From: Candidatus Doudnabacteria bacterium
GTDB taxonomy: Bacteria > Patescibacteriota > Doudnabacteria > UBA920
Assembly: GCA_963768175.1 (NCBI GenBank)
Contig: CAVYGQ010000001.1
Span: 100,481-164,480 of the forward strand
Length of the DNA stretch: 64,000 bases
Direction of reading: 5' to 3'
Shown here piece by piece: positions 6,916-61,900 of the stretch (position 1 is the first letter of the stretch; every line of letters begins with the position of its first letter). The position numbers and the translations under genes were made by a program. The notes beneath the pieces were generated by a model. It was not told the origin of the DNA. It searched no databases and was given only the letters and a program-made list of their open reading frames with translations.

Positions 6916-7089
6916 GCTTACGCGTTAGACAAATAATAGTGTTCGACCTTGTGGAGAACCTATTATTTGTCATAATTCCTTAAGCTTTTTTAGAAAAATA
7001 TCTTCTCCACAAGGTCGAAGGATATTTTTCTAACGATAGTTTCGTGAAATGCGTGAGTGCCGTTTAGTTTCAAATAATTTGATGTCTCC

Positions 7090-17412: not shown

Positions 17413-17564
17413 TTGTTAGTTTTAGGGGCCAGCGTTGTAGAAATTAATTTGTTGTAAGTTATAAAGACCAGTGTAGTCGTAAGGAATAAGTTGTAAAGTT
17501 CTTAAAACATATACTTATTACCACACTGGTTTCTACAACTTATAACCTATAACCGCCCCCAATC

Positions 17565-19907: not shown

Positions 19908-20537
19908 TTACTGGCAATTTTCATTTTTACTATGGGACACGACTTTTGCAAGGTCAGTTAAACCAATAAAAAATCCAGAATCAGATTTTTGAGAGCTAGC
20001 AATATAATTTTGGATTTCAGGATTTTTGCTCGTAATTCCAATAAAATAGGAAAATGAATCGCACAAATCTGGCTCGCTTAATAAACCCTCATCGTATGAA
20101 CTCTCAACAGTATCAAATTCTCCAAGATAATTATCAAGTTGTGCGTCTGTATACTGCCCGTGATTTTCTGTTAGTATGGGTTGCTTGCTCTCAATAGCGT
20201 CAATAATTTTTGTATTTGTATTATTGAAAAAAGCAGAATTTAAAGCGATGTTGTTCTCTGAAGCAGTTTGTTTTTTTGCATCATCAATAAGAACATAGGT
20301 CATAATAACTAGAATGACTGTAAAAGTCACTAAAGCCCAAGTAAGATACAAAAGCCTTTTTGAATATTTATCGCTACTGTTACTAAAATTTATTATATTG
20401 GTATTCAGTTCTTTTATGCCACCTCCAAGATTCCGCAATTCTATTACTGTCGTTTTCATCCTATCGTTAGTTGTTGCGGCTAAATCACGGTCTATACCGT
20501 TACCAGTTTTTATTTCTTTAAATTCATCTTCTCCCAT
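19908..20537 (-). CDS. Hypothetical single-pass membrane protein (island cargo)
   Basis: A ~60-aa cytoplasmic N-terminus and one TM helix precede an Asn/Ser-rich extracytoplasmic domain. The gene is AT-rich and is the last gene of a three-gene minus-strand operon. Confidence 0.45.
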   Translation of the reverse strand: MGEDEFKEIKTGNGIDRDLAATTNDRMKTTVIELRNLGGGIKELNTNIINFSNSSDKYSKRLLYLTWALVTFTVILVIMTYVLIDDAKKQTASENNIALNSAFFNNTNTKIIDAIESKQPILTENHGQYTDAQLDNYLGEFDTVESSYDEGLLSEPDLCDSFSYFIGITSKNPEIQNYIASSQKSDSGFFIGLTDLAKVVSHSKNENCQ

Positions 20538-20561
20538 AAATAAATTTAAAATTCAGGATAG

Positions 20562-21026
20562 CTATTTTTTCTTTAAAATTATCTCCGCCAAAATTTTAGA
20601 ATCCTCTTTTTTTAATTTCAGCTTTCCGTCTGGTTTTGTTTCTCCCTGATTACCCATTTGAGATTGGGAGGCAGTCCAAATACTTATCTCTGACAGACCA
20701 AATGTGCCTAGCAACGCTCCAGTTTTCACATTGACATTTTGGACTTTATCAAACGGCATTATTTTACTGCTCTTGGCTACGACGCCGCTGTTTATTGTTA
20801 TTTTGTCATCATCAAAAACAAAAGTTATAGCGTGATTTTCAATCATTAAAATAATAAAAATTGGTAGCACTAGAATAATAAAAAAGCCCCAAAAAATACC
20901 CCAAAAACTGGAATTAGGAATAAAGGAAAAAATCAGGGCAAATATCAAGGCCATTATTACCAGAGTAGTAAACTGATACCACTTTAAAATTTTAGGCAAA
21001 TGATTCAATTCATTTTTATTGAGCAT
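20562..21026 (-). CDS. Membrane protein with bacterial PH domain (DUF304/YdbS-like)
   Basis: Two N-terminal TM helices are followed by a PH-like segment (ITFVFDDDKITINSGVVAKSSKIMPFDKVQNVNVKTGALLGTFG). Confidence 0.5.
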   Translation of the reverse strand: MLNKNELNHLPKILKWYQFTTLVIMALIFALIFSFIPNSSFWGIFWGFFIILVLPIFIILMIENHAITFVFDDDKITINSGVVAKSSKIMPFDKVQNVNVKTGALLGTFGLSEISIWTASQSQMGNQGETKPDGKLKLKKEDSKILAEIILKKK

Positions 21027-21085
21027 TAGTTTGTGGACTTAATTTTAATTACAAATTCCGCTTATATTACACACCTTTTAAAAAT

Positions 21086-21706
21086 TTATGCGAACTGTTG
21101 CAACTGTCCTAAAATGGCCTGTTCCAGCTGAACAGTATCATAATGGCGTTGAGGCTTGATGTGTAAAATATTTAACTCTGAGGCTCTCAAAGCCCCGTCT
21201 AAAAAATCATCTCTTAATTTTCTATTGAAATAATTATGGGTATAATCATCCAGTTCAATAACCAAAAGTGGCGACAAATAAACTTTGTCAAAGATTACAA
21301 AATCTACTGTCTTTTTGTTTATCCTGTTAAAGTTGCTGTAAGTGGAATTTGTGCCGTATCTTTCCAGTCCGCCTTGGACTTCAATGATTCGGGATAAGGC
21401 AACCTGTGGCATAATAAAATACCTGTCCTTGATTATTTCCTGTAGCACTCCGAAAAACTTGTATTCGGTTTGGGTCATCAGGTATCGCTTTTTTCTGAAT
21501 GGATAAATTTTATCGTCTTTTTTTACTTCCTGAATTTTTGTATTGCCAGCATTACTAGGCGGTAAAGGTATCTCGGAATAATTTTGCTTTGAGCTTTTTA
21601 TGATGTAACTGGCAAGAATGATTATGATTATTAAACCAAATAAAAAATCCATAAATTTGCTTTTAGAAACACAAAGCCCCGGTCCAGCCGGGCTTTTACA
21701 CCCCAT
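21086..21706 (-). CDS. DUF2726-domain protein (NERD/restriction-endonuclease-like fold), membrane-anchored
   Basis: An N-terminal TM helix precedes the DUF2726 signature (TVDFVIFDKVYLSPLLVIELDDYTH ... RDDFLDGAL...LNILHIK). Confidence 0.55.
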   Translation of the reverse strand: MGCKSPAGPGLCVSKSKFMDFLFGLIIIIILASYIIKSSKQNYSEIPLPPSNAGNTKIQEVKKDDKIYPFRKKRYLMTQTEYKFFGVLQEIIKDRYFIMPQVALSRIIEVQGGLERYGTNSTYSNFNRINKKTVDFVIFDKVYLSPLLVIELDDYTHNYFNRKLRDDFLDGALRASELNILHIKPQRHYDTVQLEQAILGQLQQFA

Positions 21707-22000
21707 ACCCCTTTCGGGATATGACCATAAGACAGTAGCTGAACGCGGGGTTCAGTATGTCTTATGGTTTTACAGCCGTGCCTGATTAAAGGTTTAGGCC
21801 ATTCAGTTGTGATTAAATTATACCAAACTTGACAACAATTTTAAAGGGGTGTATGGTGGAGTTAGTTCATTAAAAAGTTAATAATTAAACGTAAGTTTTA
21901 TTTCTCCTCCCTCGGAGTAAGACAGGGGCTATGCCGTTTTGAACACAAAAACGGTGTGGCGTTTTGACCGCTTGTCTCAGCCATTAGAGGCCTTACAAAA

Positions 22001-22207
22001 GTGTTTGTGGGGTTTAATATGTCTGGGTTCAGTAATGAGCTAAAACAGCGTTTAATTGATTATTTTCAAACGAAATACGGACAAAAACTAACCTCAGAAC
22101 AAGCTGAGGCTTTTTTATTGTCCCTTGCGAATCTGTATTCGCTGGTGGTAGAGCGGCGGGCGGGCCCGCAGGGCCAGCCCGACCGCCGCTCTACCTGTAT
22201 TACTTGA
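22001..22207 (+). CDS. Small hypothetical protein upstream of the recombinase (possible accessory or directionality factor)
   Basis: The 68-aa ORF ends in a GC-rich hairpin (gagcggcgggcgggcccgcagggccagcccgaccgccgctc). No motifs were recognised. Confidence 0.25.
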   Translation: MFVGFNMSGFSNELKQRLIDYFQTKYGQKLTSEQAEAFLLSLANLYSLVVERRAGPQGQPDRRSTCIT

Positions 22208-22322
22208 ATTAAGCTACACATAAGGGGATTTAATAATTACATAATTAATTTTAAGTTCTGTCAAAATAATTTGTATTTTTCTTTTGGTTAGATATATAAT
22301 CAAGCTAATTAAAAAATCAAAT

Positions 22323-23792
22323 ATGAAATATATAATCTACACCCGTAAATCATCCGAGGCCTCTGACCGCCAAGTCCTGTCCATTGAATCGCAGGAAAAT
22401 GAGTTATTGGCTTTGGCTGATAGGAATGGGGCTAAGGTTGGTAAAATATTCCGTGAGAGTATGTCAGCCAAACAGCCAGGCCGTCCTGAATTTGAAAAAT
22501 TAATAAAACTGATTGAACAAAATCCCTGCTCTGTGCTATTCGTCTGGAAACTTGACCGCCTCGCTCGTAACCCCGTTGATGAGGGTAAAATTAAGTGGCT
22601 CCTGCAAAACAAGACCATAGCCCAAATTATTACGCCTGACAGAATTTATAATCCCAATGACAATGCCTTAATCGCTTCTGTGGAATTTGGAATGGCTAAT
22701 CAGTATATTCGTGATTTATCGTCCAATGTAAAACGAGGCAATAGGACTAAACTTCAAAAAGGTGAAATGCCTGGTGCGGCTCCTATCGGCTACTTGGATA
22801 ATCCCTTAACCAAATTAAAAACTATTGACGCTCTAAAAGCTCCACTGATAAAACAAGCATTTGAACTTTATGCGACTGGGGCATACAGCTTAAAAACAGT
22901 TGGTAAAATGATTGAGACTTCAGGCCTTAGAAGTAAACTCGGCAATCCTCTAAAAAAAGCCATACTGCACCATATGTTTACAAATCCTTTTTACTACGGA
23001 GCCATTAGGCATAATGGAGAAATATATCAAGGAGTTCACGAGCCAATTATTTCCAAAACATTATTTGATACAGTGCAATATGTCTTAAGCGGTAAAACCC
23101 GCCCTAAAAAACAAAAACACTTCTTCCCTGTTAGAGGCTATATGCTCTGTCATTCCTGCGGCTGTCTGCTTACTGCCACAACTAAAAAAGGCCATTCATA
23201 TTATTATTGCACTAATGGCAAAGGCAACTGCCAACAACACAAAAAATATTTAAGAGATAAAGCCGTGGACAAACTCGTGGCTAAAACCTTAAACGAAATT
23301 AAATTTGATACCTCAATGATTGAAATGGCTTATCTCGCTTACAAGGAAAAAATCCTAAATGGCAACGATAATTCTCAAACTAGAAAATCTGAACTCTCCT
23401 TACAGCTCAAATCTGAACAGGACAAGCTCTCTAATCTCGCCAAGGTTATTTCCTCTAAGCCGACACTCGCTAACTCCCTAGAGGCTGAAATTTTATCTCT
23501 AGAGGTAAAGATTAAATCCATTGAGCAACAGATTAAGCAAACTGACAAACAGACCCTCCAGGAGCAATTATTTACTTTGGAACAAACAAAAAAGGCCTTT
23601 TTACAGGCCAGTTCCGCATCTTTTGACTATTTGGATAGCGATGATTACCAAAAATTTGAACTGCTAAAAAATTTACTTTGGAACCTCAAGGTAGAAAATC
23701 AGAAAGTCCAACAATATCAGTTCAAAAGTTATTATCAACTTATGGCTGAAAGCCCTAAAAACCTTCAAATTTCTGGTTGGCTGGGGTGGTAG
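22323..23792 (+). CDS. Large serine recombinase (resolvase/invertase catalytic domain, recombinase domain, zinc ribbon)
   Basis: The N-terminus YIIYTRKSSEASDRQVLSIESQ carries the catalytic Ser, with a Cys cluster (CHSCGC...C) and a C-terminal coiled-coil. The likely start is the ATG at 22323. The 3' end overlaps a tRNA-Gln-derived repeat. Confidence 0.85.
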   Translation: MKYIIYTRKSSEASDRQVLSIESQENELLALADRNGAKVGKIFRESMSAKQPGRPEFEKLIKLIEQNPCSVLFVWKLDRLARNPVDEGKIKWLLQNKTIAQIITPDRIYNPNDNALIASVEFGMANQYIRDLSSNVKRGNRTKLQKGEMPGAAPIGYLDNPLTKLKTIDALKAPLIKQAFELYATGAYSLKTVGKMIETSGLRSKLGNPLKKAILHHMFTNPFYYGAIRHNGEIYQGVHEPIISKTLFDTVQYVLSGKTRPKKQKHFFPVRGYMLCHSCGCLLTATTKKGHSYYYCTNGKGNCQQHKKYLRDKAVDKLVAKTLNEIKFDTSMIEMAYLAYKEKILNGNDNSQTRKSELSLQLKSEQDKLSNLAKVISSKPTLANSLEAEILSLEVKIKSIEQQIKQTDKQTLQEQLFTLEQTKKAFLQASSASFDYLDSDDYQKFELLKNLLWNLKVENQKVQQYQFKSYYQLMAESPKNLQISGWLGW

Positions 23793-23803
23793 GATTCGAA
23801 CCT
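23778..23803 (-). repeat. Partial copy of the tRNA-Gln 3' end (candidate att-site direct repeat)
   Basis: tggctggggtggTaggattcgaacct matches the 3' 26 nt of tRNA-Gln at 26228-26253 with one mismatch. Confidence 0.6.
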
Positions 23804-23931
23804 TATTAGGTCTAGAACCAAACCCTTTTAATTATGGCCATAAATGTCCTTTAATATAAGTTGGGGCAATTTAGTTTCCAAAAGTATAAAGTGCTATACT
23901 ATAATTAAATAGATTATTATAGTATATAACT

Positions 23932-24639
23932 ATGGGGAAATATCCAAAAATTAAATTTATTATTGATTTTAAAGAAGACAAAAAAAATGCGCTGAGATTT
24001 TTAGGAGATACTAATGAATGGAAAAAGGAGCGTTTTTTTCCGTCTGAGTTACAATATGTTCTACAGAATAAATTAGCACAGAAAGAAAAACAAAGGATTG
24101 TTAATAACTTTGTTAAACAGTATTTTTTAAAAAATGAGTTTGAAATTAAAATTGGGGTAAGAGCAATTGCAAATGAATGGATGTCGATTGGAAGGTATTT
24201 TTTTGATCTAGTTGACAAGCTATTTTACGACCACCCTTGGCCAAAAGGAAACTACGTGGGATATGCAAGTATTTTTAATATGTTTCCTAGAGATATTGAG
24301 AAAAAAACCTTTTCATTTCCATATCGGAAGGAAGATGTCAGTTGGGCAATAAAAGTGATAGCCCATGAAATGTTACACTTTATTTTTTTTGACTATTTAA
24401 ATAAAGTGTATAGGTATACTCAAAATACCCAAATAAAAAATAAAAATTCAAACTTCATTTGGCAATTATCAGAGGCTCTAAACAATATAATAGAAAATTC
24501 GCGATCATACCGTAAGGTCATACCAATAAAAAAATTGAGCAAGCCATATCCAGGAAACGAAAAAATTTATAAAAAACTACTGGCCCAATGGAATAAAAAA
24601 AACGATATAAAAAAGTTATTGGATAGCGCTTTAGGGTAA
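23932..24639 (+). CDS. Hypothetical protein with an HExxH motif (possible zinc-dependent hydrolase)
   Basis: It has an IAHEMLH motif and an AT-rich composition. No other similarity was recognised. Confidence 0.45.
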   Translation: MGKYPKIKFIIDFKEDKKNALRFLGDTNEWKKERFFPSELQYVLQNKLAQKEKQRIVNNFVKQYFLKNEFEIKIGVRAIANEWMSIGRYFFDLVDKLFYDHPWPKGNYVGYASIFNMFPRDIEKKTFSFPYRKEDVSWAIKVIAHEMLHFIFFDYLNKVYRYTQNTQIKNKNSNFIWQLSEALNNIIENSRSYRKVIPIKKLSKPYPGNEKIYKKLLAQWNKKNDIKKLLDSALG

Positions 24640-24796
24640 ATAAAACGGAGCCCCAATCTTGGAAGAGAGGGGCTCCGCTACGATAGCGGCAGGAACGAGT
24701 CCTTGCCTAGGCGCAGTCGTAACCGCTGTTGACAGGTACCCCAAATTCTAGACACTTAGTCTGAGGTATAATAAGGCTAGAAAGGAATCTAACTTT

Positions 24797-25063
24797 ATGC
24801 CCAAAGGCAAATACAAAGTCAGTCCGGAAGTTAAAACTCAAATTCTAAAACGAATTAAGGAAGAAGGTGTCAGCGTCACCCAGGCGGCCGAGGAGCACGG
24901 CCTGTCCACCCAAACCATTTACGGCTGGATAGCCAAAGGGGTTACAGCTCCGCCGTCCGTGCTTGAACTCTCCCGCCTGAAGCGGGAAAATCAAACCCTC
25001 CACGAGATTATCGGCCGGCTGACAGTCAAACTGTCATTGGCGGAAAAAAAGGACATTGGTTGA
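24797..25063 (+). CDS. IS3 transposase OrfA (HTH plus leucine zipper)
   Basis: An HTH (VSVTQAAEEHGLSTQTIYGW) and a heptad-Leu C-terminus are present. The gene ends inside an A7G run at 25044-25051. Confidence 0.85.
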   Translation: MPKGKYKVSPEVKTQILKRIKEEGVSVTQAAEEHGLSTQTIYGWIAKGVTAPPSVLELSRLKRENQTLHEIIGRLTVKLSLAEKKDIG

Positions 25064-25895
25064 AGACCTGTCCGCCGCTATGCACCTTGAAAATCCGACT
25101 AAGACCGAGTTGGCCAGGAGCTTGGGAGTCAGCAGAGCCAGTCTGTATTACGAACCTACCCTGCCGCAAAAAGACTGGCTCCTTAAAATCCGCATTGAAC
25201 AAACCCTGCATGACCACCCCAGCTACGGCCACAAACGGCTGGCTCCGGCGCTACATGTTAACAAGAAAAGAATCCGGCGCACCATGAGGCTGTTTGGTAT
25301 TAAGCCTTACCGCAGGACAGGCAGAAAGCTAAGAAAAGCAAGGGATTTGGGACAAATTTCCGCTCCTTACCAAAACTGGCTGATGCTGATTCCGTTTCCA
25401 GAAGAGCCGGGAATTGTCTGGGTCAGTGACTTTACCTACATATCATTCCACGGCCGGTTTGTTTACCTGGCGACGATAATAGATTTATTCACCAGGGAGG
25501 TTGTCGGCTGGTCAGTCTGGACCGCGCATAGCAGCCAGCTAGTTCTACTGGCTTTAATTGACGCACTGGAAAAACATCCGGCGGCCAAATATCTCCATTC
25601 CGACCAGGGGCAAGAATACAAATCCCGAACCTACTGTAGGCTGGCCGAACAGGCCGGTATTACAATTTCCATGAGCCACAAATCATCACCGTGGGAGAAC
25701 GGCTACCAAGAATCCTTTTATGGCAAGCTCAAGACTGACTTAGGTGATCCGGGGAGGTTTAAGACCTTGGGAGAGCTAACGGCCGAAATTTACCTCCTCA
25801 TCTACAGCTACAACCACGACAGAATCCATACATCATTAAAAATGCCGCCGTCAGCATTTGCCGACCGGCAGCGGAATCAAGTATCATTAACTTAA
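25023..25895 (+). CDS. IS3 transposase OrfB (DDE integrase core), frame open from 25023 and overlapping orfA by 41 nt
   Basis: An rve-type DDE core is present (WVSDFTYI ... HSDQGQEY ... with a downstream E). It lies in the +1 frame relative to orfA. Confidence 0.85.
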   Translation, partial: QSNCHWRKKRTLVEDLSAAMHLENPTKTELARSLGVSRASLYYEPTLPQKDWLLKIRIEQTLHDHPSYGHKRLAPALHVNKKRIRRTMRLFGIKPYRRTGRKLRKARDLGQISAPYQNWLMLIPFPEEPGIVWVSDFTYISFHGRFVYLATIIDLFTREVVGWSVWTAHSSQLVLLALIDALEKHPAAKYLHSDQGQEYKSRTYCRLAEQAGITISMSHKSSPWENGYQESFYGKLKTDLGDPGRFKTLGELTAEIYLLIYSYNHDRIHTSLKMPPSAFADRQRNQVSLT

Positions 25896-26227: not shown

Positions 26228-26302
26228 TTGGCTGGGGTGGCAGGATTCGAACCTGCGAATGGCGCCTCCAAAGGGCGCTGCCTTACCACTTGGCGACACC
26301 CC
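26228..26302 (-). tRNA. tRNA-Gln (anticodon UUG)
   Basis: The minus strand reads UGGGGUGUCGCCAAGUGGUAAGGCAGCGCCCUUUGGAGGCGCCAUUCGCAGGUUCGAAUCCUGCCACCCCAGCCA. It folds as a cloverleaf with U1-A72, a 7-nt anticodon loop CUUUGGA and an encoded CCA. It is close to E. coli tRNA-Gln. Confidence 0.9.
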
Positions 26303-26439
26303 AAAATAAGACAACTAAGGTATATTATAAAATAAATTCGGGAAAAAAGAAAGCCCAACCTTGAGTATGGGGAGCTTGCGGAATTTGCGTTTGACAGCCA
26401 AAATGTGCTATAATTTCTTTAGGATTAATCCCTAAATTT

Positions 26440-28656: not shown

Positions 28657-29124
28657 GTGAGAGCTTTCTTAGTATTCTTGACATTGTTGGCCCCGACGAT
28701 GGCCAGCGCCCAGCAGGTGGACAAGATTCTGTTCTTCGGTCCGGGGTTTTCTTCGTCCTTGGCGAACGGTGCCAAAAGCGTCTCTGCCATCGGCGGAGCC
28801 AAGCTGGTCATCCACCTTGGCACCGGCGGCTGGTTCTCGCAGCTGTCCTGCTCCGCGAGTTTCGTGGAGCCGCAGATGACGGGAGCCAAGTCGTATTGGT
28901 CCATGCGACCGTCTGTCACTTTGGGTTACCGGTTCCGCAGCGGGAAAAGCCGATTCTCGGTTTTTGACGGGTTCGGCGAAACCCGCAACAAGGTTGGCGA
29001 TTTCCTGCCGACAGCAGTCGGCGGGGTGATTGTCAATCTCAAGGGTCGTTGGGGCGACCTCACTGACGTGAGCAGGAATGCTCAGTCGTGGGGGTTTTCC
29101 ACAACACTCGGCTACCGTTTTTAG
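28657..29124 (+). CDS. GC-rich signal-peptide protein resembling a small outer-membrane beta-barrel (C-terminal ...LGYRF)
   Basis: The gene is ~58-60% GC against a ~42% background. It has a signal peptide (MRAFLVFLTLLAPTMASAQQ), alternating hydrophobic beta-strand patterns and an aromatic C-terminal Phe. Confidence 0.45.
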   Translation: MRAFLVFLTLLAPTMASAQQVDKILFFGPGFSSSLANGAKSVSAIGGAKLVIHLGTGGWFSQLSCSASFVEPQMTGAKSYWSMRPSVTLGYRFRSGKSRFSVFDGFGETRNKVGDFLPTAVGGVIVNLKGRWGDLTDVSRNAQSWGFSTTLGYRF

Positions 29125-29225: not shown

Positions 29226-29476
29226 TATCAGCAATTAAACCCCCACACCAATTTGATATAAATTTGTTAAGGGTTTAGCAAAATCCTCCAACCATTTCAA
29301 AATGAATTGGTGTGGGGGTAAACCAAAGACAGTTGGCCTCCGACTGAAACGTCGGAGTTAATTATCATCGCAAGATGATTGCCCACCGAGGAAGTGTAGC
29401 GCGCCCATTCATGGGCTGCAGCCGATAAATCGGCGCGCTACATCACACTCGGGTAAGCCCGAGTATTTTTGTTCGG
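29226..29476 (+). ncRNA. Candidate structured sRNA (promoter, five consecutive hairpins, intrinsic terminator); class unknown
   Basis: A TGGTATAAT -10 at 29217-29225 is followed by stems aaacccccacaccaatt/aattggtgtgggggtaaacc, ctccgac/gtcggag, atcatc-gcaa-gatgat and gtagcgcgcc/ggcgcgctac. The final stem cactcgggtaagcccgagtg is followed by atttttg. Confidence 0.3.
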
Positions 29477-29542
29477 CGTCATCCTGAACGAAGTGAAGGA
29501 TCTCATTAAAGAGATTCCTCGCTGCGCTCGGAATGACGCCGG
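29472..29542. repeat. Family-1 palindromic element in the rplJ leader region
   Basis: ttcggcgtcatcctgaacgaagtgaaggatctc ... gagattcctcgctgcgctcggaatgacgccgg. Confidence 0.8.
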
Positions 29543-36617: not shown

Positions 36618-36868
36618 AGTTACGCATTGCAGGTTCCCCTACATTCTTACTAACCTACAAGCTACTTGCTAAGCTTATGTCCGAGCTCCAGAAACAAAAA
36701 TTAAATATCCTTGCCCAGTTACGCGGGCTTTGCGCGCATTGTTCCTGTGGTTCCTCCCACCCGCATCGCTGCCCGGTGCAGGAAATTTCCGCGCGTATCT
36801 CTTCCTTGCGCGGCGTACCGTTGATTGTGAACAACGAATTCAAAGGCGTGTTTTTTTCAAAAATTTAA

Positions 36869-37304
36869 AGGTTAAATAAACACCCTCAGCAGAGACGGTC
36901 TTCCGGTAAGCTGGAAGACCGCTCTGCGAGGGCGCCCTGCGCCAAGAGGGGTTAACACCGGAGGGGCTGGCGCAGGATTTTTTGGGGGGAAGAGGCCTGA
37001 GGAGGCACTACAGTTTGGCCTCAACCCCCTGCTGCCTAAGGAACTTTTGACACCTCTCCAGAGCACGAGAGAGGAGAGGGCTTAGGAGGTTACCTCCCGG
37101 AATCTAAAGTATCCGGGAATGTCCCTGGGGGCAGCGAGCTTATGATTCCGTCCTATAATGAATTTTTGAGCCGGCGGGAGCCCACAGGCGTGGGTCTCGG
37201 AGGAGAAGGATCCCCCGCCGGCTGTCCCGAAGTATGTAAATATATTATAGGATTTTCTGTAAAGAAAGCAAGACTAAAAACACCCCAAATAATTGGGGTG
37301 TTTT
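36869..37304 (+). ncRNA. GC-rich, highly structured non-coding region ending in a bidirectional terminator; candidate ncRNA of unknown class
   Basis: The region is ~55-60% GC with nested stems (cagagacggtcttccggtaagctggaagaccgctctg; gccggcggg...cccgccggc). No plausible ORF is present. The terminator caccccaaataattggggtg lies at 37281-37300 with flanking A/T runs. Confidence 0.3.
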
Positions 37305-37379
37305 TTGGTAGCGCTACAGGGAATCGGACCCTGATTTGTTGGCTGAGAACCAACCGTCCTAACCATTAGACGATAGCGC
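37305..37379 (-). tRNA. tRNA-Glu (anticodon CUC)
   Basis: The minus strand reads GGCGCUAUCGUCUAAUGGUUAGGACGGUUGGUUCUCAGCCAACAAAUCAGGGUCCGAUUCCCUGUAGCGCUACCA. It folds as a cloverleaf with anticodon loop UUCUCAG and an encoded CCA. Confidence 0.85.
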
Positions 37380-37619
37380 CATAATTGTATCAAATAATTC
37401 TTGCCTAGCTTTATAATAATGTTTAAGGTGGTATTCTCTTTTTCGTGCTTCCGTTAAGGTAGGGCATTCTTCAGTATAGACAATTTTAAAAGGTCTGTAT
37501 GGTTTGGTTGATTTGACCTTACCGTTGTTATGGTATCGCAATCTTTGTTCTTTATCTTCTGTACATCCGATGTACTTCCAATTTTGCTTTAAGCTTTGTA
37601 ATACATATATCCAAGCCAT
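37359..37619 (-). CDS. GIY-YIG nuclease superfamily protein (small, stand-alone)
   Basis: WIYVLQS...WKYIGCTEDKEQRLRYHNNG...FKIVYTEE..T.TEARKREYHLKH matches GIY-YIG motifs. The last 7 codons overlap the 5' 21 nt of tRNA-Glu. Confidence 0.7.
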   Translation of the reverse strand: MAWIYVLQSLKQNWKYIGCTEDKEQRLRYHNNGKVKSTKPYRPFKIVYTEECPTLTEARKREYHLKHYYKARQELFDTIMALSSNG

Positions 37620-37672
37620 AAAATCGATTTAATCATAGACCGTTTCCGCCGAAGGCGGACCCGCCTCCGGCG

Positions 37673-37694
37673 GGCTAACCATTAGACGATAGCG
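37673..37694 (-). repeat. Duplicate of the first 22 nt of tRNA-Glu (ggcgctatcgtctaatggttag), a direct repeat flanking the GIY-YIG gene
   Basis: It is an exact copy of 37358-37379 and lies ~290 bp upstream of the tRNA on the minus strand. It is followed by the hairpins cccgccggaggcggg and ccgccttcggcgg. Confidence 0.7.
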
Positions 37695-37928
37695 CCTCGT
37701 CGCGCTTTACTTCGCGCTTTCGTTCCGACTTCGATCGGAACTTTCGCGCTTCGTAAAGTGCTCCTCTTCCCCAAAAATCCGTGCTCGTCCCGACTAGTCG
37801 GGACTGCGCTCCTGATTTTTGGGGACCCCTTTATTAGGGGGTCTGTGATATTCTATCAAATTTTGAGAATTTAGCCAAGTGTGGCATAATTAAATAAAGC
37901 ATGTAACATAAAACATGTAGCATTTTGC

Positions 37929-46788: not shown

Positions 46789-46949
46789 ATATTTTGACCG
46801 TAATTGCGATAAACAGTCGCCACGGCAGTTAAAAATGAATACAAAAGTATTTTACAATAAAATCGTAAATATGGCAAAAATAATTAAAGCTACAGGGGAC
46901 ACTTCTTCCAGAAGTGTCCCCTGTAGCGGTTGATCAGTTTTTGACAAAA

Positions 46950-47385
46950 ACAGAGAGAGGGTTAGAATAAATTTAACCAATCCAAAGGGACAGGAGCCAA
47001 ACTGTGTCCTTCGGGGCACTCAATAGGCTGAAAGGCCTTATCAGTTTGGTTTAAAAGGGAGGGAATGGCCATATGACTGTGACCAATTCCGTCATGAAGA
47101 ACGGCTAAGAAGATAAGTTGTCACCCCACGGACGCGATCGTGGGGACAAAATCGCCTAAGGATCCGGCTAACGGACTGGAGACCAAAGGTGCCCGGGAGA
47201 TAGCCTGCCTATTTGCCGTGGGTAAGGTTTGTACCGGGCAGCAATCATAAGCTTGGCTGCGGGCGCAGCCACTCCTTCGGCGAAGTTTTTAGGAGAATTC
47301 AGGGTAGCACAAGCTACCAAGGAATAGCGATATTCCGCCCCACTTGATGCCGGCAAGTGGGGTTCGTTTTTGTCTTTTTACAAAA
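46950..47385 (+). ncRNA. Structured ~430-nt non-coding region with an intrinsic terminator; candidate ncRNA (RNase P RNA-sized, class unconfirmed)
   Basis: It has multiple stems (ctgtgtccttcggggcac; caccccacggacgcgatcgtggggac; ggctgcgggcgcagcc). The terminator gccccacttgatgccggcaagtggggttcgtttttgtcttttt lies at 47337-47380. It sits in a 750-bp divergent intergenic gap between aspS and the exonuclease gene. Confidence 0.3.
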
Positions 47386-53381: not shown

Positions 53382-53440
53382 CCTAATTCCTAATTCCTAA
53401 TTCCTAATTCCTAATTCCTAATTCCTAATTCCTAATTCCT
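53382..53440 (+). repeat. Heptanucleotide microsatellite (CCTAATT)x8 plus a partial unit, ending 5 nt before the rmlA start codon
   Basis: It is a perfect tandem repeat in the rmlD-rmlA intergenic spacer and replaces any recognisable RBS. Confidence 0.9.
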
Positions 53441-55283: not shown

Positions 55284-56339
55284 TTATAGCCAATACATAA
55301 ACGCAATAACGACCAAGGAAATTATCAGGACAATAAGATTGTTGAATTTTTTGTCCAAATGCCCAAGTTTTTTTTGCACGTGTTTTTGGATGTCGGAAAG
55401 CATGAGAAAAAGCAAAATAACCCCGGCAAACAAAACCAAATAGCGGTTGGCTTGGTAACCGGCCAGAGCGGAGCTGTTTAAACTGCCAATAACGGGGAGC
55501 GAAGTTTGAAAGGAGGTGGAAGAAGTCGAAGAGGCGGCAGGCTGAGAAGACACGGAAAAATTGCTTTGCGGGTTGTTTTGCGCAAACTCCTGTCCCGCTC
55601 TGGGTAAAACGGGCTGGGCAAGAGGCGAAGGTGTGGCAGGAGCGGGGGAGGGGGTTTGTGATTGCGCAGTCGTGGTTGCTGGTGCCTGTTGCAAGCCTAA
55701 AGTTTGTGGCTTAGGTGCCGGGGAAACCGGTTTGGGCGTGGCGGCAGGAGTGCTTGCGGGTACGGCAGGCGTTTTAGGTTTTGGAACGGGAGCCAGCGTG
55801 CCAAAAGTGTTGTCTATTACGGAATGGTATTGGCCGGCTGCGCTGTTACCAAAAGCAAGCCCCATGCCCTGATCCCGGAAGCCATCGTTTAAAATGTTGG
55901 CGCGGTGTTCCGGGCTGTTCATCCAGGCGTTTATTAAACTGTCGGTGTCGTAAAATTCTATGGCGATATTTTCGCCAAGCTCCAAATAAGGGGTATAGCC
56001 CGCGGCCACGATTTTATCCCAAATGTAATGGCCGTCGGGATCCACATGGGCAAAGTAGTGCCTGGCCTGCATGTCATCGCATTTGCTTTGCGCCGCCCAG
56101 GTCAGTTTGTTGTTGGTGTTTAATGTCGTTAAATCCCTTAGGGAACGTTGCTGGTTTACGGCGTTAAGAATATTGCCTGTGGTTAAATCCGAAGCTTGAG
56201 AAATCCCGTTTTGGGGGATTACCAGGGCAATAAAAACCTTTACGGCTAAAAAGGCAAGCAATAAAAGTCCAAGGGTATTGGGTTTTAGTAATCCTTGGTA
56301 ATTATCCGAATTTTGCTTAGGTAAGGGCTTTTCTGCCAT
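55284..56339 (-). CDS. CAP/SCP (PR-1-like) domain protein with Pro/Thr/Ala-rich linker and C-terminal TM anchor
   Basis: It has an N-terminal TM/signal and a CAP core (QQRSLRDL...HYFAHVDPDGH...NAWMNSPEHRANIL). The low-complexity linker is PAVPASTPAATPKPV. Confidence 0.75.
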   Translation of the reverse strand: MAEKPLPKQNSDNYQGLLKPNTLGLLLLAFLAVKVFIALVIPQNGISQASDLTTGNILNAVNQQRSLRDLTTLNTNNKLTWAAQSKCDDMQARHYFAHVDPDGHYIWDKIVAAGYTPYLELGENIAIEFYDTDSLINAWMNSPEHRANILNDGFRDQGMGLAFGNSAAGQYHSVIDNTFGTLAPVPKPKTPAVPASTPAATPKPVSPAPKPQTLGLQQAPATTTAQSQTPSPAPATPSPLAQPVLPRAGQEFAQNNPQSNFSVSSQPAASSTSSTSFQTSLPVIGSLNSSALAGYQANRYLVLFAGVILLFLMLSDIQKHVQKKLGHLDKKFNNLIVLIISLVVIAFMYWL

Positions 56340-56436: not shown

Positions 56437-57756
56437 ATGACCCAAGATTCTTCAATCAAAAAATATCCCCATACAACCGCTGAAGTGGCGCAAATGTTAG
56501 GTATGCACCCGACCGGCCAGAATTTGCCCATGGGCAGTTTTGCTGTTTCCGATTTGCCGGTGGCAGACTTGCCGGTGGCCGAGGATGTTGTCTCCGGCCA
56601 AAAGCAGGCGGAGCCGGCAGCTTACGCGCCTGAGTTATCCGAAAATATGGGCAATGAAAAAGCCGCTTTACCTGACGAAAGCGAACTTGAGTCAATTCAG
56701 GAAAGGGCGGCTGACCAGCCTGTTTATGTTAAAGTGGGCAAAGCGCTTTTGCCTTACGCCGCTATTTTTTTGATCGGGATATTCTTGTATTATTTCTTTT
56801 TTACCAAAGTGGATTTTACCACGGTGTTTAAATTTTCTCCCAAAGCCGCCACCCCGCAAATAACGGAAATTCAGAAATTGGAACAACAGGACGCGGCTTC
56901 ATACCAAAGTTGGGTTGCCAGTTACTATTATGATGTCAGCGACCCCAACATTTTAGACCCCGAAGCCGACAATTCCGGCAACGGCTTATCTAATTTTCAA
57001 AAGTACCTTTTGAATTTAAACCCCAAATCTTACGATACTTTGGGCTTGGGGCAAGCCGACAGCCAGAGTATTGCCATGGGCATTAATCCGCTTACAGGCG
57101 GCCCTGAAACGGATGCCCAAAAAGCCATTGTCAGCAAATATATAGACATGGAAGTGGTGATGAACCGCTTGACCTTGTCTAATATGCAAAACCCTCCGGA
57201 AGTGGCCGGAGCCAATACCTCTGACGGCAACTCCGCGGAAAGCCAAAAGTTTTCCATCAGGGGCGGGACGTCCGCAAACCAGATTAACAGCAGCCAGGTG
57301 GACATTAATACCGGCGTGCCCGGTCTTTTGGAAATTCCCGATTTAAAAATAAAGGTCCCGATTATTTGGAGCACGGATCCTAAAAATTTCGACAATGATT
57401 TACAAATTGGCGTAGTCCATTATCCGAGCACGGCTTTGCCCGGGGAAATCGGCACCGCATACATAGCCGGCCACAGCAGCAATTATGTTTGGGCCAAAGG
57501 CAGTTATAACCAGATTTTTTCCAAGTTAGGGGATTTGGCCCTTAATACCTCGTTCAAAATTACGGTTACGCAACAAAGCGGCAAAACCGCGGTGCTTGAT
57601 TATGTTGTCACCAAAATCCAGCAATACAGCCCCACCGATCAGGCGCAATTTGAGAGCTCGGATAAATCCGTTGTCGCCCTTTCCACCTGCTGGCCGGTTG
57701 GCAGCACGGCAAAAAGATTGGTTGTGTTTGGACAGCTGACGCAAGTAGTAAAATAA
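56437..57756 (+). CDS. Sortase-family transpeptidase with long N-terminal extension
   Basis: A TM helix is followed by the sortase His (YIAGHSSNY), the catalytic Cys (VVALSTCWP) and the Arg (KRLVVFG). Confidence 0.75.
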   Translation: MTQDSSIKKYPHTTAEVAQMLGMHPTGQNLPMGSFAVSDLPVADLPVAEDVVSGQKQAEPAAYAPELSENMGNEKAALPDESELESIQERAADQPVYVKVGKALLPYAAIFLIGIFLYYFFFTKVDFTTVFKFSPKAATPQITEIQKLEQQDAASYQSWVASYYYDVSDPNILDPEADNSGNGLSNFQKYLLNLNPKSYDTLGLGQADSQSIAMGINPLTGGPETDAQKAIVSKYIDMEVVMNRLTLSNMQNPPEVAGANTSDGNSAESQKFSIRGGTSANQINSSQVDINTGVPGLLEIPDLKIKVPIIWSTDPKNFDNDLQIGVVHYPSTALPGEIGTAYIAGHSSNYVWAKGSYNQIFSKLGDLALNTSFKITVTQQSGKTAVLDYVVTKIQQYSPTDQAQFESSDKSVVALSTCWPVGSTAKRLVVFGQLTQVVK

Positions 57757-57913
57757 TCTTAAATTTTACTGAGTAGACAGTGCCTATCATCGCAGTAATT
57801 TACGATGGTAGGCGTTACTCTACTCGGGCTTCGGCCGCGAGTTGCATCCCGATTTGTAAATCGGGGTGAAGTTCGGCCGATGTGCCGAGATTACAGTTCG
57901 GATCGGAGGATCC

Positions 57914-58702
57914 ATGAAAATCGCTCGTTTGAATGTAGGCCAGATTTTGGCTGTGACTATGGCAGTGCTTTTGGCACTCGCCGGCGTCCAGCCCGTTGTC
58001 GCTGCCGAACCGGCCGCGGCTTCTGATCCGGCAACCCTGACTAGGGAACGGGTCAACAAGGTCGGCCGCGGACGTTACGTAGCGGCTGATGATTTCCGGG
58101 TTAACTCGACCATAAGTTTCTCGCAGCCGGACTACAAGTTCGAGAGCCGGCTGCCGCAGGGCTTCGGTCGCGCTACCGCTAAGCATCTGGGCGTCGCTGG
58201 GAAGAGGTTCTGGAATGAGTATCCTGGCATCGGTGCGGCGCTAGTCGTAATGGCACCGGAAACGGTCCTCATTTACGACACGGTCTCCCGTGTTGCGCTG
58301 TATGTAACCGGTTGCCATCGGGAAGGGAAGAAAGGCGGACTCAACCGTATTAAGGAAGAGAATCCTCCACAACCCGAACTAACTTCCGTACCTTCTGTGG
58401 TTCCTCCCACAGAACTGAAAGGAGAACTGAAGGGTTCGCAGCCGACCCCAACTCCTACGCCTACACCGGTGCCAACGCCGATGTTGCGTGTCGACCACAA
58501 CACGACGAACGTGCACGTTGATAACAGCACGCGCATCGTCAACGTGACCGAACACAAGGCGAAATGCGGCCGAGGCTGCAAGGTAGCGATATTCATCGCC
58601 ATCGGCGCGGCCGGAGCTGCCGGAGCTGCTCTCGCGATCGGGCACAAAGGTGGCACTACCACTTGTGCCTCCTGCACAGGAGGCCCAGGACCCAGGCCAT
58701 AA
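57914..58702 (+). CDS. GC-rich secreted/anchored protein (signal peptide, PT-repeat linker, C-terminal hydrophobic segment)
   Basis: The gene is ~60% GC. It has a signal peptide (MKIARLNVGQILAVTMAVLLALAGVQPVVAAEP), a PTPTPTPTPVPTP linker and a C-terminal VAIFIAIGAAGAAGAALAIG segment. Confidence 0.45.
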   Translation: MKIARLNVGQILAVTMAVLLALAGVQPVVAAEPAAASDPATLTRERVNKVGRGRYVAADDFRVNSTISFSQPDYKFESRLPQGFGRATAKHLGVAGKRFWNEYPGIGAALVVMAPETVLIYDTVSRVALYVTGCHREGKKGGLNRIKEENPPQPELTSVPSVVPPTELKGELKGSQPTPTPTPTPVPTPMLRVDHNTTNVHVDNSTRIVNVTEHKAKCGRGCKVAIFIAIGAAGAAGAALAIGHKGGTTTCASCTGGPGPRP

Positions 58703-58823
58703 GGACCCAACGAGCACACTGGAAGGGGGTCGTCGCTTGCGACTACCCCCTCATCCTCTCCTCAATTTTTATATACTTTCAACTTTTTCGCTTATTTAAA
58801 AGGTAAATTATTTGGCTTAGGTC

Positions 58824-58852
58824 TTGACAAAACGTCAATTTGATACTATAAT
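58824..58852 (+). promoter_or_regulatory. Canonical sigma70-like promoter of the giant surface protein gene
   Basis: TTGACA (58824-58829), a 17-bp spacer, then TATAAT (58847-58852). The gene starts ~70 bp downstream. Confidence 0.65.
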
Positions 58853-58919
58853 GTGAAGTTATTAAAATTAATCATGGATTTAAGTTTGAGATAGTTTAAT
58901 AACATTTTAAGTAAATGAT

Positions 58920-61900
58920 ATGAGCATCAAAACATTCTCTAAATTTAGTATGGGCTTAAAGGTCATCGCTATTTTAGGTATTACCTCTATGGCTGTTTTG
59001 GCGTTAGTCCCTAGGGAGGCTGGCGTTTTGCTGGCAGATAATAATGCTAATTGCACTACTTCCACCACGCCGACGTTTAACCCGTATCCGGTTTCAAATA
59101 ATCCCGGTAACTGTCAGGACTACCCGTTCATCGCTTCCAAAGTAATACACAGCGATGGTTCGCAAACCGGTTTTAGTACTGGTTCAATACAAGCCCAACC
59201 CGGTGATAAAGTTGAAGTCCAATTATACATAGATAACGGAGCCGCTTTAGGTTCTCCTGCTCTAACAAATATTCAATTAACAACCAGTGCCGTTCTAAGC
59301 GCAGGTTCTTCCCATTCCGTTTCGGCTTCCGTTACAGCCAGCAATGCCAATAACTCTTTAAGCGGTAGCTTAAACATTTTAACCCCAAACAGTTCCACTT
59401 TGCAGGTTGATCCTTTAACCGGGCAATGGTACCAGCAAACTACCTCCATGGGCAATTTGGGCAATATTGTTAACACTACGACCCATTTGCCCGACCAGGC
59501 CGCTTGTTTCCCTTATGTCCGATTTATTAATATGGTTTTTGATGTTGTCGGGCAACAGGTAACCCAATCCGTTACCTTAACCGCCACGCCAAACCCTGTT
59601 TGTATTGGAGCTTTAACTACCTATTCAATAACTTCTACTGTAAATGGCCCGATTGTTTGGACCTCAACTTTTAACGGCCAACCGACCGGTGAGAACAATT
59701 CTTATCCCGGACAGAATTTAACCCCGCAAAACGGAGTGTATGTTTGGAGCGCCGTGGGTGATTATTGGGGCGATCATTTCCACAGCGGCAATCCCTTGGC
59801 CGATGTCGGTACTTGGACTAAAACGGCGACCATTAATGGCGTGCAGAGCAATACCGTAACTTTTCAGGTTAAGGATTGTACGCCCCCCGTACAAAAATCC
59901 GCCAGCATCACCGCCACTTTAGGCAGCGCCAATAAAGCTCAGTGTTTATATAACGGCAATGTGACTTGGCAGAGCAGTGGTTATGATGCCGTGGCGGTTT
60001 ACGTCCAATCGGTTGGCGCCAACGACTATTCGCTGGTGGCTGCCAACCTTCAGGGCAGTACCAATATTCCCTGGTTCATTCCGGGCAGAAATTACGAGTT
60101 TACCCTTTGGACGGTCAGTGTTTCCAACGGCGTATACACCAAAGTAAGCCAGATTGCCGATCCGGCGATTGTCAACGTGCCTGCTTTGGATTGTACCGTG
60201 CCGGTGACTTTAACCTGCAGTGCTTCTCCTATTTTAGCCAATATCAACGATCCAGTAACTTTTGGTGCTTTAGGCGGTTCCGGTCCATACTCTTGGACTA
60301 ATGGCGAAAATCCCGCCACTGGTAGTGGCCAGAGTTTTACCACCAGTTTTTCTTCAGCCGGTAACAAAACCGTGACTGTCCACAGCCAAGACGGCCAGAT
60401 TGCCTATTGCAGTGTGACTATAAAACAGCCGGTTCAGAAACCCGCGACTTTAAATTGTGCTACCCCGACCATCCAAGCCAATATTGATGATACCGTAACC
60501 TTTGGTGCTAATGGCGGCACCGCTCCTTATTCCTGGAGTAATGGTGGCAATCCTTCCAACGGTAGCGGCCAGAATTTTTCTACCAAGTTTTCTTCTTCCG
60601 GCAACAAAACGGTTACCGTCTCTAGTTCCGACGGTCAGACTGCCTATTGCAGTGTGACTATAAATCCGCCCCCCGTAAACAAATCCGCCAGCATCACCGC
60701 CACTTTAGGCAGCGCCAATAAAGCTCAGTGTTTATATAACGGCAATGTGACTTGGCAGAGCAGTGGTTATGATGCCGTGGCGGTTTACGTCCAATCGGTT
60801 GGCGCCAACGACTATTCGCTGGTGGCTGCCAACCTTCAGGGCAGTACCAATATTCCCTGGTTCATTCCGGGCAGAAATTACGAGTTTACCCTTTGGACGG
60901 TCAGTGTTTCCAACGGCGTATACACCAAAGTAAGCCAGATTGCCGATCCGGCGATTGTCAACGTGCCTGCTTTGGATTGTACCGTGCCGGTGACTTTAAC
61001 CTGCAGTGCTTCCCCTAATCCGGTTGACATTAACAATCCGGTTATCTTTACCGCCACTGGCGGCGCCGCTCCTTATAATTGGAGTAACGGCGGCTATCCT
61101 TCCACCGGCAGCGGCCAGAGCTTTTCCACTACTTATTCCACAGCCGGCACCAAGACAGCTACGGTTTCCAGTTCCGACGGCCAGACCGCTAACTGCAGCG
61201 TGGTTGTCAAGCCGACAGTACAGCAAAATGCCCAGTTAACTTTGACTAAACAGGTCAAGAATCTGGGTCCCAGCCAGACCACCCTTTATGATAAAAGCGT
61301 GCTGGCCGAGCAAGGCGATGCCGTCCGCTATCTAATAACCGTAACCAATATCAGCTCCGTAACCGCCAACAATGTTTCAGTGACGGATACTCAAGGATCA
61401 AGTGCCGGTAATGTTACGACTTCCGGGTCAAACGGCAGTGCTGTTCCAATTTCTGGCAGCTTACAAAACGGTTTAAACTTCGGCTCTTTAGCCGCCGGAA
61501 GTTCGGTTTATATTACCTATACTTTACCGGTAAATGTCAACAGCGGCAGCATTGACAATACGGCAACGGTCAGCGCTTCCAATGCCAACAGTGCCAGCGA
61601 TTCGGCCGTTGTTACTATTACAGCAATTCCTATTTGCCAGGCCGACAGCAATTTTGCCTTAAACGCTTCTACTCCGGTCAAAAACGGCTCAAGCTATTCG
61701 GTTACTTTAACTTGGTCTTCCACAGGGAATAATCAAATTAAAATCACCCAAATTAATCCGGGCGCCGGTTATGAAAATACTATAGCCATCGGCAGTTCGA
61801 GTGGCAGTCAAACTATTAACGGCCTACTTCCGGGCAGCACTTACATCTTTAAGATGTATGATGTTTCTTGCAGCCAATTTTTAACCTCCGTCCAGGTTGT

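Follow-up and report, generated by a model that had tools for sequence, protein, structure and literature searches.

Within a 64,000-nucleotide stretch of a Candidatus Doudnabacteria contig (CAVYGQ010000001.1, positions 100,481 to 164,480; hereafter the window, whose own numbering we use), an islet at 57770-58760 rich in guanine and cytosine (GC) carries an open reading frame (ORF) that we call X, encoding the protein P0001. X is best described as a stalked, adhesin-like surface protein with an undescribed head; it is a conserved part of a sortase/adhesin module and not a one-off import. The data show the gene and its layout, its family, its synteny and its codon anomaly, and that known homologues and folds are lacking; an adhesive role, the tie to the sortase and the cause of the GC shift are inferred. 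X represents a small, uncharacterized family that is so far confined to uncultured contigs resembling the candidate phyla radiation (CPR), or Patescibacteria. Our fuller explanation, in which this stalked protein acts within a sortase/CLIPPER module and belongs to a laterally exchanged pool of GC-shifted genes, is in our judgment evenly poised between right and wrong.

A preliminary description of this DNA, made from the sequence itself, had marked the islet as GC-rich and foreign to the genome. The islet has a GC content of 0.580, compared with 0.439 across the 64 kb, and among sliding 991-nt windows (mean 0.439, standard deviation 0.043) the maximum of 0.581 begins at 57771 and is reached by a fraction of only 0.0002. 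Within 100-200 nt outside the islet, GC falls to 0.38 on the left and to 0.40 and then 0.25 on the right. The leader inside it has a GC content of 0.50, against an intergenic mean of 0.37, and its 3′ end reaches 0.64. X itself has the highest GC among 60 ORFs, with values of 0.62, 0.52 and 0.61 at the three codon positions (GC1, GC2 and GC3) against means of 0.48, 0.36 and 0.48. Its product is rich in Ala (12%), Val (10%), Gly (10%), Thr (9%), Pro (9%) and Arg (6%), and when we back-translated it with the window's own codon usage, the expected GC was 0.553, compared with a background of 0.450 and an observed value of 0.588. About 75% of the GC excess of X is therefore due to amino-acid composition. 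Plain GC3 is only mildly raised (z 2.5), with five housekeeping ORFs equally high, and is a blunt and misleading measure here because the genome is already C/G-rich in four-fold codon boxes and prefers A/T in two-fold boxes.

At the codon level the foreign composition was borne out. In a leave-one-out synonymous-codon likelihood, none of the other 56 ORFs is as atypical as X (z -6.5); a serine recombinase comes next at -4.45. The shifts sit in the two-fold boxes and in Leu and Arg: TTC is used in 6 of 6 cases (19% in the background), AAG in 64% (27%), ATC in 55% (21%) and CTC in 24% (5%), and X contains no TTA or AGA codon. The fraction of two-fold-box codons ending in G or C is 0.625 in X and 0.71, the most extreme value in the window, in a second islet that the preliminary description had likened to this one; all other ORFs lie at or below 0.48 (mean 0.34, standard deviation 0.095), and the likeness between the two islets is thus confirmed. 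High-expression codon bias was considered for X and ruled out: the genes for ribosomal proteins L10 and L7/L12, at 0.42 and 0.27, show no such preference, and the ORFs with high GC3 have ordinary housekeeping functions. The second islet (28657-29124, plus strand) encodes a 155-residue protein, P0006, with a signal peptide and a C-terminus reading ...LGYRF; its family consists of 14 clusters of unnamed metagenomic proteins and has no Pfam, NCBIfam or PHROG match.

An assembly error that joined a contaminant GC-rich fragment into a low-GC genome could also have produced the abrupt compositional change. That change is all that speaks for a mis-join, which we consider negligible: an independent Logan assembly of run ERR10755942 matches window positions 56694-59924 with one mismatch in 3231 nt (99.97%) and crosses both junctions, and the gene order recurs on an unrelated JGI contig. 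The islet is continuous with its flanks and is not a chimera. A separate gene call on contig L005, from an independent assembly, gave an identical 262-residue product.

We next describe the protein, whose likely start is the ATG at 57914, with a GGAGG four nucleotides upstream. The N-terminus, MKIARLNVGQILAVTMAVLLALAGVQPVVA followed by AEP, comprises a basic stretch, a hydrophobic stretch (hydropathy peak at residues 3-18) and an Ala-X-Ala region, and all X homologues have comparable N-termini. Judged by these features, X is a predicted Sec-exported protein. Beyond the signal peptide lie a conserved head domain, a Pro-rich spacer, unconserved in homologues, that includes a 14-residue Pro-Thr (PT) run, a hydrophobic Gly/Ala-rich segment and a short tail; the C-terminus reads ...KCGRGCK-VAIFIAIGAAGAAGAALAIG-HKGGTTTCASCTGGPGPRP. 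The preliminary description had called X a PT-linker secreted protein and a possible surface factor. The signal peptide and the PT run are indeed present, but the second hydrophobic segment, which had been missed, makes X membrane-anchored and not simply secreted. That X encodes a surface protein is supported. Ahead of the hydrophobic segment we detected no LPXTG-like motif, the sorting signal expected of a sortase substrate. By eye, short Pro/Arg-containing C-terminal tails also appear in P0008, P0010, P0011, P0020, P0036 and P0043, as in P0001, and on neighboring CLIPPER or giant proteins (L015 1946-3829; L001 1766-5407). Examples are ...GPGPRP, ...NTGRPKF/T, ...APPRP, ...PGAPGPRPL and ...APRPAR, and these tails may be a shared C-terminal tag or merely low complexity.

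We modeled the head domain with AlphaFold 2 from an alignment of 41 sequences. The prediction is mainly beta and confident, with a predicted local distance difference test score (pLDDT) of 95 and a predicted template-modeling score (pTM) of 0.87. A Foldseek search of the PDB with this model gave no fold match (best E 0.34, template-modeling score 0.24), nor did a search of the viral models in BFVD (best E 0.4). Judged against these two collections, the modeled head would provisionally count as a fold not seen before. An Arg-Tyr pair, a single Leu, a single Cys and an Asn are invariant in the head, and the residue after the Asn is usually Arg. A Cys-Gln thioester in the head was also considered and dropped, as the Gln in the FxQP motif varies.

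A word-indexed search of 5.8 billion clusters identified only four close homologues of X, and an exhaustive search of 1.84 billion representatives with a hidden Markov model profile of the head domain identified 43 at E <= 1e-3. X matched no Pfam, NCBIfam or PHROGs model and no PDB sequence, and no homologue was found in phage and plasmid collections or in IMG/VR. In other family members the head is followed by collagen repeats, by a CLIPPER domain or by a weak SpaA-like hit, giving a head-stalk-anchor layout as in adhesins. We read the genomic contexts of ten loci, all of which are on uncultured, small-gene, CPR-like contigs, one of them a Candidatus Doudnabacteria metagenome-assembled genome. 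These contigs carry DUF5663 genes, a type IV secretion system (T4SS) pilin gene, sortases and CLIPPER adhesins, and none of the contexts examined showed a link to Actinobacteria.

Pfam annotation of the neighbors confirmed that X lies between a sortase gene and a giant adhesin gene, as the preliminary description had placed it. The window sortase passes the NCBIfam model TIGR01076 and matches no sortase class model. At its C-terminus the adhesin carries ...APKTG followed by a hydrophobic stretch and KKK, which resembles a non-canonical sortase signal. The CLIPPER domain (DUF11 in earlier naming) forms isopeptide-bonded stalks in fibrillar adhesins (PMC12617251). The contig of P0007, whose head domain is 72% identical to that of X, is the only syntenic relative found; it carries X at the same place, with a CAP gene on the minus strand, sortase, X and CLIPPER genes ordered as in the window. 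On two contigs a sortase gene immediately precedes the distant homologue P0013 (~36% identity), P0008 has a sortase two genes upstream and a CLIPPER-type homologue downstream, and P0012 has a CLIPPER protein downstream. On L001-L003, X is followed by a DUF5663 gene and then by homologous giant proteins. Within the window's adhesin gene we also noted a long, near-exact internal direct repeat (59977-60147 and 60763-60933, ~786-nt spacing) with identical out-of-frame ORFs, in which the protein block beginning KSASITATLGSANKAQCLYNG... is duplicated; it could give rise to assembly ambiguity or length variation.

The codon shift recurs across the family. In 9 of 9 other loci, the two-fold-box GC-ending fraction of X (0.43-0.62) exceeds that of the adjoining housekeeping, sortase and CLIPPER genes, so that, with the window included, X is shifted at two-fold boxes in 10 of 10 loci beside sortase, CLIPPER and housekeeping genes of native composition. 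This recurrence, together with the retained sortase/adhesin neighborhood, is at odds with a single recent insertion. At four-fold sites, X homologues have diverged to saturation (identity 0.16-0.54, with 0.27 expected by chance), which rules out that the shift is an unameliorated leftover from one old transfer. The clearest case is L012, a ~35% GC genome in which neighboring genes have a GC3 of ~0.20-0.30 and X has 0.45 (z 8.6); the gene after X there encodes an unrelated 174-residue membrane protein with a GC3 of 0.58 (z 10.6). In L012 (6797-8422), and also in L013, we see a two-gene GC-rich islet directly behind a sortase of native composition. GC-shifted genes likewise stand beside X at L001 3-230, L014 2227-3390, L015 140-553, L011 1397-2071, and L004 1976-3019 and 4448-5545; the L001 fragment has a GC of 0.67 and a GC3 of 0.83, and the L014 neighbor a GC3 of 0.71. 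Five of these six encode small signal-peptide proteins, and the sixth, the L001 fragment, is truncated at its N-terminus. We found no homology among the GC-shifted neighbors of different loci, or between them and X.

The preliminary description had proposed horizontal acquisition, possibly from a high-GC Gram-positive donor indicated by the PT repeats. A recent import of a single, hairpin-bounded ~1-kb segment from an actinobacterium would agree with X having the most atypical codon usage in the window, and with sharp GC borders that take in the non-coding leader and 3′ end; PT-rich linkers are also common in actinobacterial secreted proteins. This origin was not borne out. The 43 relatives gave CPR-like contexts wherever these were examined and never an actinobacterial one, gene order is kept in the syntenic relative, and distant members retain the sortase adjacency. 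The PT run is short and unconserved, and so does not point to such a donor. At the islet we found no convincing flanking direct repeats, integrase or other mobility genes nearby, or tRNA at the borders (the nearest tRNAs are at 26229 and 37306), and the hairpins are generic and unconserved. The GC of X, 58%, is also well below typical actinobacterial values. We consider such an import very unlikely.

In the explanation that we favor, a Sec-type signal peptide would export the N-terminal, beta-rich head of ~110 residues, the Pro/PT-rich spacer would hold it off the membrane, and the Gly/Ala-rich hydrophobic segment with its short cytoplasmic tail would anchor the protein. The head may serve as a binding module beside a sortase-dependent adhesin, for contact with a cell surface or host. 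Together with the unrelated genes for small secreted proteins that adjoin it, X would belong to a laterally exchanged, GC-shifted pool whose members replace one another at this conserved locus in CPR bacteria, with gene flow inside the CPR group in place of actinobacterial import.

Alternatively, X could be a long-standing, vertically inherited resident whose GC shift some gene-specific force maintains. This force could be selection for a GC-rich mRNA that is highly structured and hence long-lived, with its 5′ stem-loop leader and 3′ hairpin, or GC-biased gene conversion at a surface-protein gene that recombines often. Conserved synteny with native-composition neighbors fits such residence, as does a shift seen in 10 of 10 hosts despite saturated synonymous sites. 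The leader is strongly structured, with the ribosome-binding site inside a hairpin, and 7 of 7 X coding regions form more stable folds than their synonymous-codon shuffles (z -2.8 to -5.3), compared with a median z of -1.7 in 15 control segments (Mann-Whitney p 0.003). The second islet (z -5.3) and the GC-rich neighbor in L012 (z -3.6) are likewise more stable than their synonymous shuffles. Against a role for mRNA structure, two of the 15 controls were extreme too (-8.6 and -5.2), the synonymous-codon shuffle breaks codon-boundary dinucleotides, and RNAalifold detected no conserved structure in the head-coding region of eight homologues (-9.5 kcal/mol, covariation term +0.49). Ribosomal protein genes lack this codon preference, and bacteria are not known to undergo gene conversion on this scale. 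Neither force accounts for the variation between loci in the GC-shifted genes beside X. We regard vertical residence as possible, on the doubtful side. Because the neighboring cargo differs between loci, we slightly favor lateral replacement over a gene-specific force; the data do not decide between them.

Several observations weigh against the explanation that we favor. The binding function proposed for the head has no structural match behind it, and the pattern of invariant Cys, Arg-Tyr and Asn(-Arg) residues may as easily belong to an enzyme or a site of covalent attachment. As X has no LPXTG-like signal, its link to the sortase is one of gene adjacency only. In none of the ten loci does X match the two-fold codon usage of its host's housekeeping genes, and the contexts examined yielded neither a GC-rich donor lineage nor one that carries X in native composition. 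Relatives with native composition, which the preliminary description had named as a point against foreign origin, do appear on plain GC3, where X is near expectation in L011, L014 and L015 (z 0.4-1.5); the two-fold-box measure shows the shift in every one of them. The excess folding of X mRNAs points to a selective cause, and long residence accounts for the conserved position beside native-composition genes no less well than transfer does.

The preliminary description had also taken inverted repeats as the bounds of the islet. Hairpins are indeed present at both ends, but they are not island boundaries: they are generic in this genome and unconserved in relatives. The first of the described repeats is hairpin H1; the larger hairpin H2 behind it had escaped notice. 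The 160-nt leader (57757-57916) has a minimum free energy of -70 kcal/mol (z -6.4), a stability that none of 200 shuffles reached. Its excess structure ranks 7th among 33 intergenic regions, 11 of which have z <= -6, and perfect 15-20-bp palindromes occur at many other gene ends of the window. Searches of leader and tail against Rfam gave nothing at gathering thresholds across the window or at E <= 10 on 57700-58900; the best leader match scored 20 bits against a 50-bit threshold (E 0.67). The two sequences have no second copy in the window and do not resemble the flanks of homologous genes. In the explanation that we favor, the flanking hairpins are ordinary leader or transcript-end structures of this genome. 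A candidate promoter lies within the end of the sortase gene, with a predicted start a few nucleotides ahead of hairpin H1; co-transcription with the sortase is possible, and H1 might just as well mark where the sortase transcript ends. The 3′ hairpin probably marks a transcript end. It has no adjacent U-run, a T-run begins ~15 nt downstream, and it was not called by the terminator scan.

The same hairpins could in principle be the recombination sites of an integron-type or other mobile cassette, as X is a single promoter-proximal ORF of atypical composition with an imperfect hairpin on each side. However, attC sites measure ~55-140 nt and the 3′ hairpin only 28 nt, the stems lack GTTRRRY/RYYYAAC core sites, and there is no integrase nearby and no array. 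Neither leader nor tail recurs in the window or in relatives, and equally long hairpins follow many ordinary genes. We give a cassette next to no credence.

Coordinates of X and its protein regions, of their neighbors, and of other features are collected in the table below. Elsewhere in the window, 19908-25895 is a low-GC stretch whose ORFs have a GC of 0.30-0.38 and strongly AT-shifted codons (GC3 z down to -6.9), and it looks like a true mobile island. Six intergenic stretches without an Rfam match fold far above shuffles (z -8 to -9.4), and may be unannotated structured RNAs or unusually long terminator hairpins; a 1.3-kb region around a tRNA-Glu gene (36618-37928) is free of ORFs. The ORF at 8246-9643, which encodes a Y-family DNA polymerase, contains a hairpin (8872-8920; 24-nt arms, 92% complementary), and in excess folding this ORF segment exceeds every other control (z -8.6 relative to synonymous shuffles). 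A heptamer tandem, (CCTAATT)x4, at 53382-53410 lies just past an ORF end; together with the 29 nt before it, it makes up an imperfect inverted repeat.

Table. Positions of X, its neighbors and other features in the window.
Feature	Position	Strand	Details
LOOT RNA	21690-21800	-	Rfam RF03000, 70 bits; inside the low-GC stretch
Serine recombinase	22284-23792		Within the low-GC stretch
rve-family transposase	25056-25895		After the serine recombinase
tRNA-Gln	26229-26303		Just beyond the low-GC stretch
Strongly folding intergenic stretch	6916-7072	+
Strongly folding intergenic stretch	17413-17564	-
Strongly folding intergenic stretch	22067-22223	-
Strongly folding intergenic stretch	29376-29532	-
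Strongly folding intergenic stretch	36858-37014	-
Strongly folding intergenic stretch	46829-46985	+
CAP-domain secreted/membrane protein	55284-56339	-	Pfam CAP 3.4e-15; same conserved surface-protein neighborhood
Sortase-family protein, 439 aa	56437-57756	+	Pfam Sortase 1e-20; native composition; directly upstream of X
Candidate sigma-70-like promoter	57729-57757	+	TGGACA-17-AATAAT; consensus scan 10/12; pattern match only
Leader hairpin H1	57771-57822	+	7-bp outer stem, internal loop, ~11-12-bp inner stem; G-U pair on plus strand
Leader hairpin H2	57823-57889	+	Long imperfect stem; apical CCCGAUUU/AAAUCGGG stem; inverted repeat 57838-57875
Small hairpin GGAUC-GGAG-GAUCC	57900-57913	+	Encloses Shine-Dalgarno GGAGG (57905-57909), directly before the ATG
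ORF X	57914-58702	+	262 aa plus stop; frame open from 57866; from ORF list and translation
X predicted signal peptide	57914-58006	+	aa 1-~31; hydropathy and sequence reading
X conserved head domain	58034-58363	+	aa 41-150 (~110 aa); homologue alignments
X Pro-rich spacer		+	aa 151-~190; contains PT run QPTPTPTPTPVPTP at 58439-58480
X hydrophobic Gly/Ala membrane segment	58583-58642	+	aa ~224-243; hydropathy
X tail		+	19 aa; Cys/Gly/Pro; ends GPGPRP; translation
3′ hairpin	58724-58751	+	13-nt arms, 92% complementary, 2-nt loop; z -2.75
Adhesin promoter	58824-58852	+	TTGACA-17-TATAAT; 12/12 sigma-70 consensus; in 23% GC spacer
Adhesin, 1472 aa	58920-63338	+	CLIPPER (DUF11), CLIPPER_2, PKD and BiPBP_C-like domains; downstream of X

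How CPR/Patescibacteria recognize and attach to their hosts is largely unknown, and the conserved sortase/X/CLIPPER module and the confidently modeled head without known relatives are two of three leads. The third is a simple signature: GC-ending two-fold codons in a genome that otherwise prefers AT flag X, the second islet and several neighboring secreted-protein genes, and may help to find surface or host-interaction genes. We tentatively suggest, as a possibility that we rate below our main explanation, that X defines a CPR-specific family of sortase-linked adhesins with an unseen head fold, held in a GC-shifted pool apart from every host seen, through lateral replacement or through a gene-specific drive on GC or mRNA structure. 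If this is true, a compositional signature would mark host-interaction genes in episymbiotic ultrasmall bacteria. If the shift instead reflects mRNA selection or biased gene conversion, it would be a warning against reading codon atypicality as a sign of horizontal transfer.

We compared X and its locus with four known systems. Stem-loops at the 5′ end that stabilize mRNA are known from the E. coli ompA and B. subtilis aprE leaders. X, too, encodes an exported protein and has very stable hairpins a few nucleotides past the predicted start; its leader, known here from sequence, has no homology to those leaders, and structures of this kind occur widely between the genes of this genome. Pro/Thr-rich linkers of actinobacterial secreted proteins, such as those of cellulases, resemble X in that a short (PT)n run parts an extracellular domain from the rest of the protein, but the run in X is 14 residues long and unconserved, and X has no sequence homology to such proteins. 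In marine bacteria, replacement-type flexible genomic islands encode surface structures. The X locus differs from them in spanning only ~1-2 kb, in being shifted to higher GC and in retaining X itself across loci; like them, it has native flanks that enclose variable, compositionally atypical small genes for surface or secreted proteins.

The fourth comparison is with the sortase-associated surface-protein and pilus loci of monoderm bacteria, with their CnaA/CnaB and SpaA-type adhesins. X differs from the components of these loci in lacking an LPXTG-type signal, a pilin motif and a CnaA/CnaB fold, and in ending in its own membrane segment and short tail; the window sortase has no class match, and the APKTG motif of the adhesin is non-canonical. 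In both cases, a sortase gene adjoins genes for stalked, secreted surface proteins. The downstream partner of X has CLIPPER (DUF11) stalks of the isopeptide type (PMC12617251), and members of the X family share the head-stalk-anchor layout.

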